From IMG/VR virus record IMGVR_UViG_3300032053_000151: a DNA stretch of 45,231 nt; one strand, given 5' to 3'. The stretch comes from a virus. Below are positions 5,196-5,563 of this stretch, piece by piece. The first letter of the stretch is position 1, and every line of letters starts with the position of its first letter. The notes beneath the pieces are model-generated. The model saw only the letters and a list, made by a program, of their open reading frames with translations. It ran no database searches and was not told where the DNA came from. Position numbers and translations under genes: made by a program.

Positions 5196-5563
5196 TGGAG
5201 GTGGCGGGAGTCGAACCCGCGTCCAGAAACACCTACAACCAGATCCTACGAGCGTAGTCAGTGTCCCCTGACTGGTCCAACGGTTTGCCGCTCTTCTAGT
5301 TACCCCGAGACAGGCTGACGGCGTCCTGTGTACGGCGGTCTCCTGTGTTGTGCCTTCCCGTTACCGGAGCATCTTGCGGGAAGACATCCCTGCTGCTTTT
5401 ACGCAGCGGCGCGGAATTCCGGTGCGACAGCACCGATCATCCATGCCGGGAGCTCAACGTTGTCGTTGGCTTTTGAGTCGTGGTCGGCTTTTGAAAGGGC
5501 CTGCTGACCAACCCTTGCTCGCATCTGATCTTCAGTAGTCCCTGTCGAAACCGGGTCACCCCC
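5196..5563 (-). ncRNA. ssrA: tmRNA (SsrA), 368 nt. Its 5' end is GGGGGTGACCCGGTTTCGACAGGG and its 3' end is GGACGCGGGTTCGACTCCCGCCACCTCCA, with the G3:U70 pair. The internal tag reading frame GCC AAC GAC AAC... encodes ANDNVELPAWMIGAVAPEFRAAA before a TAA stop.
   Basis: The 5' acceptor strand GGGGGTG pairs with the 3' strand CACCTCC. The 3' tRNA-like domain is near-identical to the E. coli tmRNA 3' end. The tag starts with the canonical ANDN. CCA is not encoded. Its 3' end lies 7 nt from the tRNA-Met 5' end. Confidence 0.85.

Follow-up and report, generated by a model that had tools for sequence, protein, structure and literature searches.

A phage-encoded tmRNA gene with an in-frame, hairpin-forming expansion of its tag reading frame

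Background

Transfer-messenger RNA (tmRNA) genes of phages have been catalogued, and functionally they are almost unstudied. They were reported in 402 of 18,146 phage genomes (PMC9004378), occur in mycobacteriophages including Bxz1 and in Bacillus phage G (PMC4131195), and are also present in huge phages (PMC7162821). The viral DNA IMGVR_UViG_3300032053_000151, of which the whole stretch of 45,231 nucleotides (nt) was analysed (hereafter, the window), carries a tmRNA (ssrA) gene beside a cluster of tRNA genes, and a preliminary description of this gene pointed to a tag reading frame of unusual length. The question raised by the locus is whether the phage keeps a working tmRNA, from which lineage the gene was obtained, and whether the enlarged frame alters the rescue of stalled ribosomes or is an elaboration that leaves the mechanism as it is.

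Results

ARAGORN called a complete one-piece tmRNA at 5196-5563 on the minus strand, with its coding part at 94-165 of the gene (window 5399-5470), and the Rfam tmRNA model RF00023 matched 5193-5563 on the same strand over model positions 1-374 of 374, with a score of 120.3 bits (E value of 1.4e-46) that lies well above the gathering score of 47 bits. Related phage copies scored 110, 115 and 75.8 bits. The preliminary description had proposed a complete SsrA RNA, which these two calls bear out; its acceptor pairing GGGGGUG/CACCUCC with the G3-U70 pair is visible in the sequence, its resume frame GCC AAC GAC AAC is set by the RF00023 alignment on the consensus resume region, and the 23-codon tag that it read down to the UAA agrees with the ARAGORN tag (ANDNVELPAWMIGAVAPEFRAAA*). 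The covariance model did not place the resume codon elsewhere or give a short tag. Overall the earlier observation is confirmed and its interpretation supported. The RNA has a tRNA-like domain with a 7-bp acceptor stem, a T-arm (GCGGGUUCGACUCCCGC) of the canonical form GCGGG-UUCGACU-CCCGC and no anticodon arm, a long helix 2, a first pseudoknot (PK1) just 5' of the resume codon, and an internal frame that opens at an Ala codon without a start codon and stops in the loop of helix 5 (Table 1), where tmRNA stop codons lie as a rule (PMC1168896).

The fold is under selection. A pseudoknotted model was written from the window sequence and counted on an alignment of seven sequences. Over the seven copies, 95.2% of the cells were paired and 26 pairs had changed on both sides; when the partners were slid by 1-3 columns the number of double-sided pairs was 2-7, and none of 500 shuffles reached 26. 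Compensatory changes support the acceptor stem, segments H2a and H2d of helix 2, both stems of PK1 and of the second pseudoknot (PK2), the second stem of PK3, helix 5, the last hairpin and the T-arm. For example, both PK1 stems are rebuilt in different sequence in four of the related copies (L002, L129, L131 and L136; handles of this kind denote the individual loci), the second PK2 stem reads CUCC/GGAG, ACCC/GGGU or CUCG/CGAG across the phages, and the second PK3 stem is GUCCU/GGGAC in L002, with two compensatory pairs. Three pseudoknots (PK2-PK4) 3' of helix 5 are typical of tmRNAs without being universal. At the PK4 site there is a plain hairpin that also covaries (AGCCAG/CUGGCU, AGCGAG/CUCGCU); relative to the Rfam model, positions from about 253 to 290 are missing here, and no second PK4 stem was found by eye. 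Loss or replacement of pseudoknots is known in other lineages (PMC1168896). An alternative hairpin from the energy fold (AGCGG/CCGUU, RNA 272-285) was rejected, as it is broken in L002 while the second stem of PK3 compensates.

The tag frame falls into a part held in common with chromosomal tmRNAs of Myxococcota, preceded by the same resume context (CAAAA-GCC), and an additional part. The preliminary description had taken the segment that is extra relative to tags of the ANDNVEL...AA type for an insertion, and in support of this about 110 Myxococcota tmRNAs (described below) match the phage copy over the first seven codons. As to the claim that the tag is unusually long, 23 residues is indeed long, but such a length has precedents, because the mRNA-like domains of known tmRNAs span 48-126 nt (PMC1168896) and the tag of phage Bxz1 has 25 residues.

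Three forms of the tag were observed in the related phages. The 23-codon frame is kept in seven related copies, of which the window, L126 and L137 have ANDNVELPAWMIGAVAPEFRAAA, and L136, L123, L002 and L135 have single-residue variants of it (D3S, N4D, E6A, V15S). A tag of 15 residues (ANDNVDFPQYALRAA) occurs in L129 and L131, and one of 14 residues (ANDNVELAPALLAA) in L138, a more distant phage that carries an MVP homologue (see below). The tags of L123, L131, L136 and L137 were read by homology, since ARAGORN misplaced the resume codon, and the split gene of L135 was missed by that program. All of the phage tags are longer than the 11 residues of the host tag and diverge from it right after codon 7, with proline there, and all end in Ala-Ala (RAAA, RAA and LLAA in the three forms). 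The 36-nt insert was also considered as a repeat element and rejected as such, since the window contains a single occurrence of the 36-mer even with up to 3 mismatches allowed; a pattern of its 20-base core, searched in all metagenome contigs, recovered these tmRNAs and one chance match only.

Variation within the 23-residue form is unevenly distributed. Codons 8-20 vary synonymously at 9, 13, 14 and 16 and non-synonymously only at 15 (V/S), and the host-like codons 1-7 contain three non-synonymous positions. Between the same phages the MVP proteins are 76-82% identical and 44-48% of the four-fold sites of the gene differ, versus 0-4 of 13-14 four-fold sites in the tag frame. Because of this low four-fold-site change relative to MVP, the nucleotides of the frame are more tightly constrained than the encoded peptide alone would demand.

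The palindrome CGGAATTCCG and the CGGUGC/GCACCG hairpin noted in the preliminary description are present, and the hairpin proved larger than first claimed: it extends over 40 nt and consists of an outer stem (GGCAUGGA/UCCGCGCC), an internal loop (UGA/AAU), an inner stem (UCGGUGC/GCACCGG) and a UGUC loop. Folded alone, the mRNA-like domain gives z = -5.0 in the window, -6.6 in L002 and -7.1 in L123, and takes a three-way form in which a basal CCC/GGG helix (RNA 114-116/174-176) closes helix 5 together with the insert hairpin. One inner pair of the hairpin is changed from U-A to C-G in L136 and L137, at two third positions that are both synonymous; this is its sole double-sided change. The A.C mismatch of the window is a G-C pair in L002 and L123, and the remaining insert variation is confined to the tetraloop (UGUC, AGUC, UUCG, CUCG). 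The bases of the UGA/AAU internal loop are unpaired yet invariant. The frame of the 15-residue form folds as one long hairpin with its UGA stop in the 3' strand.

To place the tmRNA taxonomically, one genome per species was searched for the 20-mer GCCAACGACAACGTTGAGCT, which lies at the beginning of the tag frame. At least 120 genome loci contained it; nearly all of those among the matches listed were from Myxococcota, with Myxococcus, Corallococcus, Archangium, Cystobacter, Hyalangium and Vulgatibacter among the genera. The 20-mer is common to all these loci by construction, and the informative part is the taxonomy and the uniform 11-residue tag. ARAGORN found about 110 tmRNAs in the listed loci, and among these the tag was ANDNVELALAA in 97 (95 with one stop codon and 2 with two), ANDNVELAVAA in four and ANDNVELTLAAA in one; in a few the ARAGORN frame started further upstream. 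The phage tmRNAs are 72-89% identical to those of Myxococcota over about 118 nt at the 5' end and about 64 nt at the 3' end, highest for L002, whereas the central region of about 130 nt, containing PK2-PK4, is about 30% identical and effectively unalignable. In L002 (tmRNA at L002:730-1101, from the 197-kb phage) the identity to Myxococcus tmRNAs such as that of L011 reaches 83% over the 5' 119 nt and 89% over the 3' 64 nt; the ends of the window tmRNA are less similar, with only about 74%. The closer match of L002 suggests either that it has kept the ancestral state or that it later recombined with a host ssrA.

Compared with the chromosomal ssrA of Myxococcus, Corallococcus, Archangium, Cystobacter and Hyalangium, the phage gene is alike in being one-piece and about 360 nt long, in the G3-U70 pair, the CAAAA-GCC context and the ANDNVEL codons, and in that CCA is usually not encoded. 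It differs in its tag, in the 40-nt hairpin beside helix 5, and in PK2-PK4, of which PK4 is a plain hairpin; furthermore, the host gene lies outside a tRNA array, and in at least 10 host loci smpB is found within the 8-kb locus. The comparison with host ssrA that the preliminary description had recommended thus argues against a recent host copy, as the tag is common over the first seven residues only and the PK2-PK4 region differs. From the taxonomy and tags of the 20-mer loci, the identity of the two ends and the presence of Kofleriaceae proteins among the MVP homologues, we infer that the tmRNA was captured long ago from an ssrA of the Myxococcota type and that the host belongs to Myxococcota.

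The window is phage DNA, because its open reading frames (ORFs) match a baseplate-J-like protein, class II ribonucleotide reductase, a DNA helicase (PHROG 2488), Bro-N, RuvC and PHROG families; a YAcAr/SLOG protein, a Kelch-repeat protein and an MVP homologue were also matched. The tmRNA gene lies within the virus genome and not at a prophage-chromosome junction, with phage structural and replication genes on both sides. The order tmRNA, tRNA-Met, tRNA-Ser, Gln-like tRNA, tRNA-Ala, MVP recurs on independent viral contigs, which were recovered by sequence-pattern, protein-neighbour and exact-protein look-ups; these include contigs of 187,070, 188,569, 190,250, 190,551 and 196,807 bp and several shorter ones. 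The tmRNA was found in this synteny on at least eight independent contigs, and the copies on the viral contigs of 187-197 kb are interior to them. The recurring span of 187-197 kb and the IMG/VR classification indicate that the clade is one of complete phage genomes of about 190 kb. Genomes of this size range include IMGVR_UViG_3300009169_000014, 3300017774_005745, 3300037493_005727 and 3300036766_000644. The layout had been likened beforehand to a phage tRNA/tmRNA island rather than a chromosomal locus, and both the phage nature of the window and the synteny of the array over these long contigs agree with this. All of the neighbours named at that time (tRNA-Ser, a pseudo-tRNA and tRNA-Ala) lie on the minus strand, the pseudo-tRNA being real in that it scores 27.1 bits against the tRNA model, and the distance to tRNA-Met, given as 7 nt, is 6 nt by the ARAGORN tRNA start and 7 nt by Rfam.

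No close cultured relative was found: among 50,697 phage records, blastn with the locus matched only tRNA and tRNA-like-domain segments, and in tblastn searches with the baseplate-J-like protein and the helicase the best identities were 25-29%. Myxophage Mx1, which is superficially alike (169.6 kb, 55.5% GC, 22 tRNAs; PMC10720576), was not matched in the latter searches. Neither an integrase nor translation- or protease-related genes were seen among the window ORFs scanned. In agreement with the preliminary description, which saw no SmpB gene near the tmRNA, tblastn with E. coli SmpB found none in the 45-kb window, and the same query detected smpB beside ssrA in 10 bacterial loci.

Table 1. 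Positions of the tmRNA gene, its structural parts and the adjoining tRNA genes in the window
Feature	Positions	Strand	Basis
tmRNA gene, one-piece, 368 nt to discriminator A, CCA not encoded	5196-5563	-	ARAGORN and RF00023
Acceptor 5' strand GGGGGUG (RNA 1-7), pairs with 5197-5203	5557-5563	-	7/7 pairs in all copies, G3-U70 invariant, two compensatory pairs
Helix 2, 5' strand (RNA 20-47), pairs with RNA 311-340 (5224-5253)	5517-5544	-	H2a and H2d 100% paired, compensatory changes
PK1 (RNA 48-83), AAGGG/CCCUU and UGGUC/GACCA	5481-5516	-	Covariation
Tag frame: resume GCC 5468-5470, 23 codons (ANDNVELPAWMIGAVAPEFRAAA), stop UAA 5399-5401	5399-5470	-	ARAGORN, Rfam, homologues
First seven codons (ANDNVEL), nucleotide-identical to Myxococcota chromosomal tmRNAs	5450-5470	-	20-mer scan and ARAGORN
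36 extra nt (12 codons, PAWMIGAVAPEF) relative to the 11-residue host-type tag	5414-5449	-	Rfam insert; alignment with host-type tmRNA L001
Insert hairpin, 40 nt, interrupted (RNA 117-156)	5408-5447	-	Fold of mRNA-like domain
Helix 5 (RNA 157-172), GCUGC/GCAGC, UAA (RNA 163-165) in loop	5392-5407	-	Fold; U-A to C-G compensatory in three copies
PK2 (RNA 178-224), 10-bp stem UGUCUUCCCG/CGGGAAGGCA and CUCC/GGAG	5340-5386	-	100% paired
PK3 (RNA 235-277), ACAGG/CCUGU and GCCGU/GCGGC	5287-5329	-	Covariation
Simple hairpin AGUCAG/CUGACU (RNA 291-308) in place of PK4	5256-5273	-	Covariation
T-arm (RNA 344-360), acceptor 3' strand CACCUCC (361-367), discriminator A (368)	5196-5220	-	Rfam; T-stem pair GC/CG/UA covaries
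Spacer UAGUUG between tmRNA and tRNA-Met, 6 nt	5190-5195	-	ARAGORN and sequence
tRNA-Met (CAU), C1 x A72 mismatch, initiator-like	5114-5189	-	ARAGORN; Rfam alignment flags first acceptor pair as non-standard
tRNA-Ser (UGA)	4860-4945	-	ARAGORN and Rfam
Degenerate tRNA, homologue of tRNA-Gln(UUG) of phage L123, apparent 6-nt anticodon loop	4782-4849	-	Rfam score and alignment
tRNA-Ala (UGC)	4549-4622	-	ARAGORN and Rfam

Discussion

The most probable explanation, to which we assign a probability of about 0.7, is that the locus is a functional tmRNA gene of an uncultured tailed phage of about 190 kb, that it is of Myxococcota-type descent, and that its expansion is tolerated or modulatory. The canonical elements of trans-translation are all present and conserved, namely G3-U70, the T-arm, helix 2, PK1, the resume context, the frame and the stop in helix 5, and the expansion is treated here as an elaboration without a change of mechanism. 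The gene would be co-transcribed with the downstream tRNA array, RNase P would cut the 5' ends, the 6-nt 3' trailer would be trimmed and, because CCA is not encoded, host enzymes would add it. Host alanyl-tRNA synthetase (AlaRS) would then charge the RNA with alanine via G3-U70, host SmpB and EF-Tu would deliver it to stalled ribosomes, and translation would resume at the GCC codon and append the 23-residue tag. The kept C-terminal Ala-Ala most likely still routes the product to a protease of the ClpXP type. Charging, use of SmpB, tagging and proteolysis are thus predicted activities of the phage tmRNA, and the presumed dependence on SmpB, AlaRS, EF-Tu, RNase P and the CCA-adding enzyme of the host follows from the absence of a phage SmpB from the window. 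The ClpXP degron consensus of E. coli is [L/F/Y/W]-[L/A/R]-L-A-A, with the terminal Ala-Ala as the key determinant (PMC10862746). Because Ala-Ala is kept and the F-R-A-A-A end of the window tag fits four of the five positions, proteolytic tagging is the default expectation, and the C-terminus of the phage tag is not obviously that of a defective degron.

Some points weigh against this explanation. The degron consensus that the window tag fits is that of E. coli and not of Myxococcota, and the assignment of the host is drawn from ancestry (the tmRNA and the Kofleriaceae MVP homologues) rather than from CRISPR spacers or an isolate. Near the tmRNA gene, no promoter of the sigma-70 type was found. 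The checks for SmpB and for proteases covered the 45-kb window and short flanks. A scan of viral contigs with SmpB showed no match on the four IMG/VR contigs of the clade among the best 80 of 366 matches, and a divergent phage SmpB elsewhere in the genome would be compatible with these results. Furthermore, the unpaired bases of the internal loop are invariant as well, so that the data on the expansion agree with selection acting on the RNA, with selection acting on the peptide and with a combination of the two, and do not tell these apart.

Accordingly, the expansion may have been selected as RNA, with the encoded peptide as a by-product; it could be bound by a protein of the phage or of the host, shield the single-stranded mRNA-like domain from nucleases, or stabilise helix 5. 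The strongly non-random fold (z of -5 to -7) and the far higher conservation of synonymous sites than in the adjoining gene are in line with such a role, as is the long hairpin formed by the frame of the 15-residue form. All of the variable insert bases are in the loop, compensatory (U-A to C-G) or mismatch-repairing (A.C to G-C), but just one double-sided change is found in the hairpin, and a constraint on RNA only does not predict the invariance of the unpaired UGA/AAU bases. Since, moreover, the frame and its in-frame stop are always kept and a candidate binding protein was not identified, we regard selection purely as RNA as possible but doubtful.

Another possible but unlikely explanation is that ribosomes are rescued as usual and the products are given a phage-specific mark that alters their fate, through the hydrophobic and aromatic insert PAWMIGAVAPEF and the Arg residue that precedes the last alanines; the tagged chains might go to another protease such as Lon, bind a phage or host adaptor, or decay more slowly than host-tagged chains. 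About 110 host genomes have a near-invariant tag of 11 residues versus 14, 15 and 23 residues in three phage lineages, and in the insert peptide 1 of 13 residues is variable versus 3 of 7 in the host-like N-terminal part, although the RNA hairpin would account for this conservation just as well. The ssrA tags of Mollicutes (e.g. Mesoplasma florum, with an NYAFA ending), which are likewise much longer than the usual 10-12 residues, provide a precedent, described in PMC9382460, which cites Gur & Sauer 2008, as an established case of tag elongation with a change from ClpXP to Lon; however, these genes are cellular and their C-terminus has become ...YAFA, whereas the phage tags keep Ala-Ala. In fact, Ala-Ala together with F and R at positions -5 and -4 fits the ClpXP consensus (PMC10862746), and a protease or adaptor gene was not found among the window ORFs scanned. 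It is likewise unlikely, in our view, that the phage has reprogrammed trans-translation by a structured, translated module that marks rescued chains. If this were true, another protease, an adaptor or a phage factor would recognise the mark or the hairpin, tagging during infection would be uncoupled from host ClpXP, and the independent expansions to 14, 15 and 23 residues against an invariant host tag would represent ongoing adaptation of the mark.

A decoy, competing for SmpB, AlaRS or stalled ribosomes and so blunting host trans-translation, is very improbable: mycobacteriophage DS6A does have a tmRNA-like gene consisting of the tRNA-like domain only, molecules of this kind inhibit tmRNA (PMC4131195), and the window has no phage SmpB, but the mRNA-like domain, the frame, the helix 5 stop and three pseudoknots, all needless for a decoy, are here conserved by covariation. 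There is next to no chance that the gene has no function and is simply carried along, be it as a host gene in decay, as an ssrA fragment of the attP type or as a chimera produced in assembly, since, although ssrA is a frequent integration site for phages and pieces of it are often found in them (PMC9004378, PMC4383910) and the host tmRNA of L001 lies at the edge of a prophage, the gene here is full-length and not a 3' part beside an integrase, has the same synteny on at least eight contigs, and has kept all helices through compensatory changes while its PK2-PK4 region diverged from the host.

A functional phage tmRNA with a tolerated or modulatory expansion is within known limits as regards location, context and tag length. 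ARAGORN shows a tmRNA of 435 nt with a 25-residue tag (ATDTDATVTDAEIEAFFAEEAAALV) inside the tRNA array of mycobacteriophage Bxz1 (cluster C1), and this phage and its relatives resemble the present one in having a complete tmRNA of a large myovirus that sits among tRNA genes and encodes a long tag different from that of the host; they have a host of a different phylum, and the Bxz1 tmRNA has no sequence relationship to that of the window. The mycobacterial host tag is ADSHQRDYALAA. The Bxz1 tag has nothing obvious in common with it, whereas in the window tag the putatively host-derived half is still recognisable. The tmRNAs of marine myophages (Melnitz and pelagimyophages) and of huge phages are also phage-encoded and have been read as maintaining or manipulating host translation, and a tmRNA is present in about 2.3% of sequenced phages (PMC9004378; PMC7162821); those of Melnitz and the pelagimyophages, however, are circularly permuted two-piece molecules, some with a glutamine riboswitch, and the present one is a standard one-piece molecule with an expanded frame. 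What is new here is the phage clade with its inferred link to Myxococcota, the exactly mapped, hairpin-forming in-frame insertion, and the differing expansions in sister phages. The recognisable part of the tag lets the change made in the phage be defined to the nucleotide, as an in-frame expansion of 36 nt, and the about 110 genomes of the putative host lineage provide a natural comparison for the 14-, 15- and 23-residue phage tags. The locus thus lends itself to experiments that ask if phages only supplement the rescue of stalled ribosomes or change what becomes of the tagged proteins, and it gives a clue to a Myxococcota host for a clade of uncultured phages of about 190 kb.

Additional observations

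The C1 x A72 mismatch of tRNA-Met is a hallmark of bacterial initiator tRNA, and two of the three G-C pairs typical of the initiator anticodon stem are present. The score of the Gln-like tRNA is below the tRNA gathering score of 29, and by alignment with L123, in which the gene is a normal tRNA-Gln(UUG), one base of the anticodon loop appears to be missing in the window and in L129. Its homologues at L129:7863-7935, L135:6405-6477 and L136:3846-3918 are called 'tRNA-???' with a two-base anticodon by ARAGORN; a Gln-derived tRNA gene is thus kept across several phages. Directly upstream of the 5' end of the tmRNA, between it and the upstream ORF (5678-6097), there is a GC-rich hairpin at 5575-5600 on the minus strand (GCCGCC-CUUCAACAA-GGCGGC). 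No clear U-tract follows it and no terminator was called there, and the hairpin could be a processing or attenuation signal.

Among other loci recovered by the pattern searches, five (L127, L128, L005, L025 and L070) were chance matches without a tmRNA, and L132/L133 have an unrelated, AT-rich tmRNA of 312 nt with the tag ANDNVEFNYALAA. In phage Myrna no tmRNA was found in the annotated tRNA region. In L135 (Logan SRR12762275_7502) an insertion of about 645 bp (L135:5389-6035) interrupts the tmRNA gene within the T-loop, so that the gene consists of L135:5033-5388 and 6036-6049, the 3' strands of the T-arm and acceptor stem resuming beyond the insertion. No Rfam group I intron model matched the insertion, which contains on the opposite strand an ORF for a LAGLIDADG-type homing endonuclease (L135:5510-5944; Pfam LAGLIDADG_3, 1.5e-4; PHROG 5046, 5e-22).

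The MVP homologue of the window is a full-length protein of 905 residues (1133-3850, minus strand; MVP_shoulder 1.8e-25 and Vault_3 1.7e-10 in Pfam), encoded at a distance of 0.7 kb from the tRNA array. Its homologues number 4,726. Those 74-96% identical are on contigs including several of 138-190 kb, and among those with about 50% identity are proteins under the name Kofleriaceae (Myxococcota), which are the closest homologues from named cellular organisms. The MVP of L138 (Logan SRR12487036_1047, an 84-kb contig with the tmRNA at 1357-1730) is 62% identical, and that of L139, a 203-kb contig with 12 tRNAs and no tmRNA within 7 kb of MVP, about 53%. A Kelch/beta-propeller-repeat protein of 1,178 residues (30491-34027, plus strand; Kelch_1, 4.4e-12), encoded within the baseplate/tail block, may be a receptor-binding protein.

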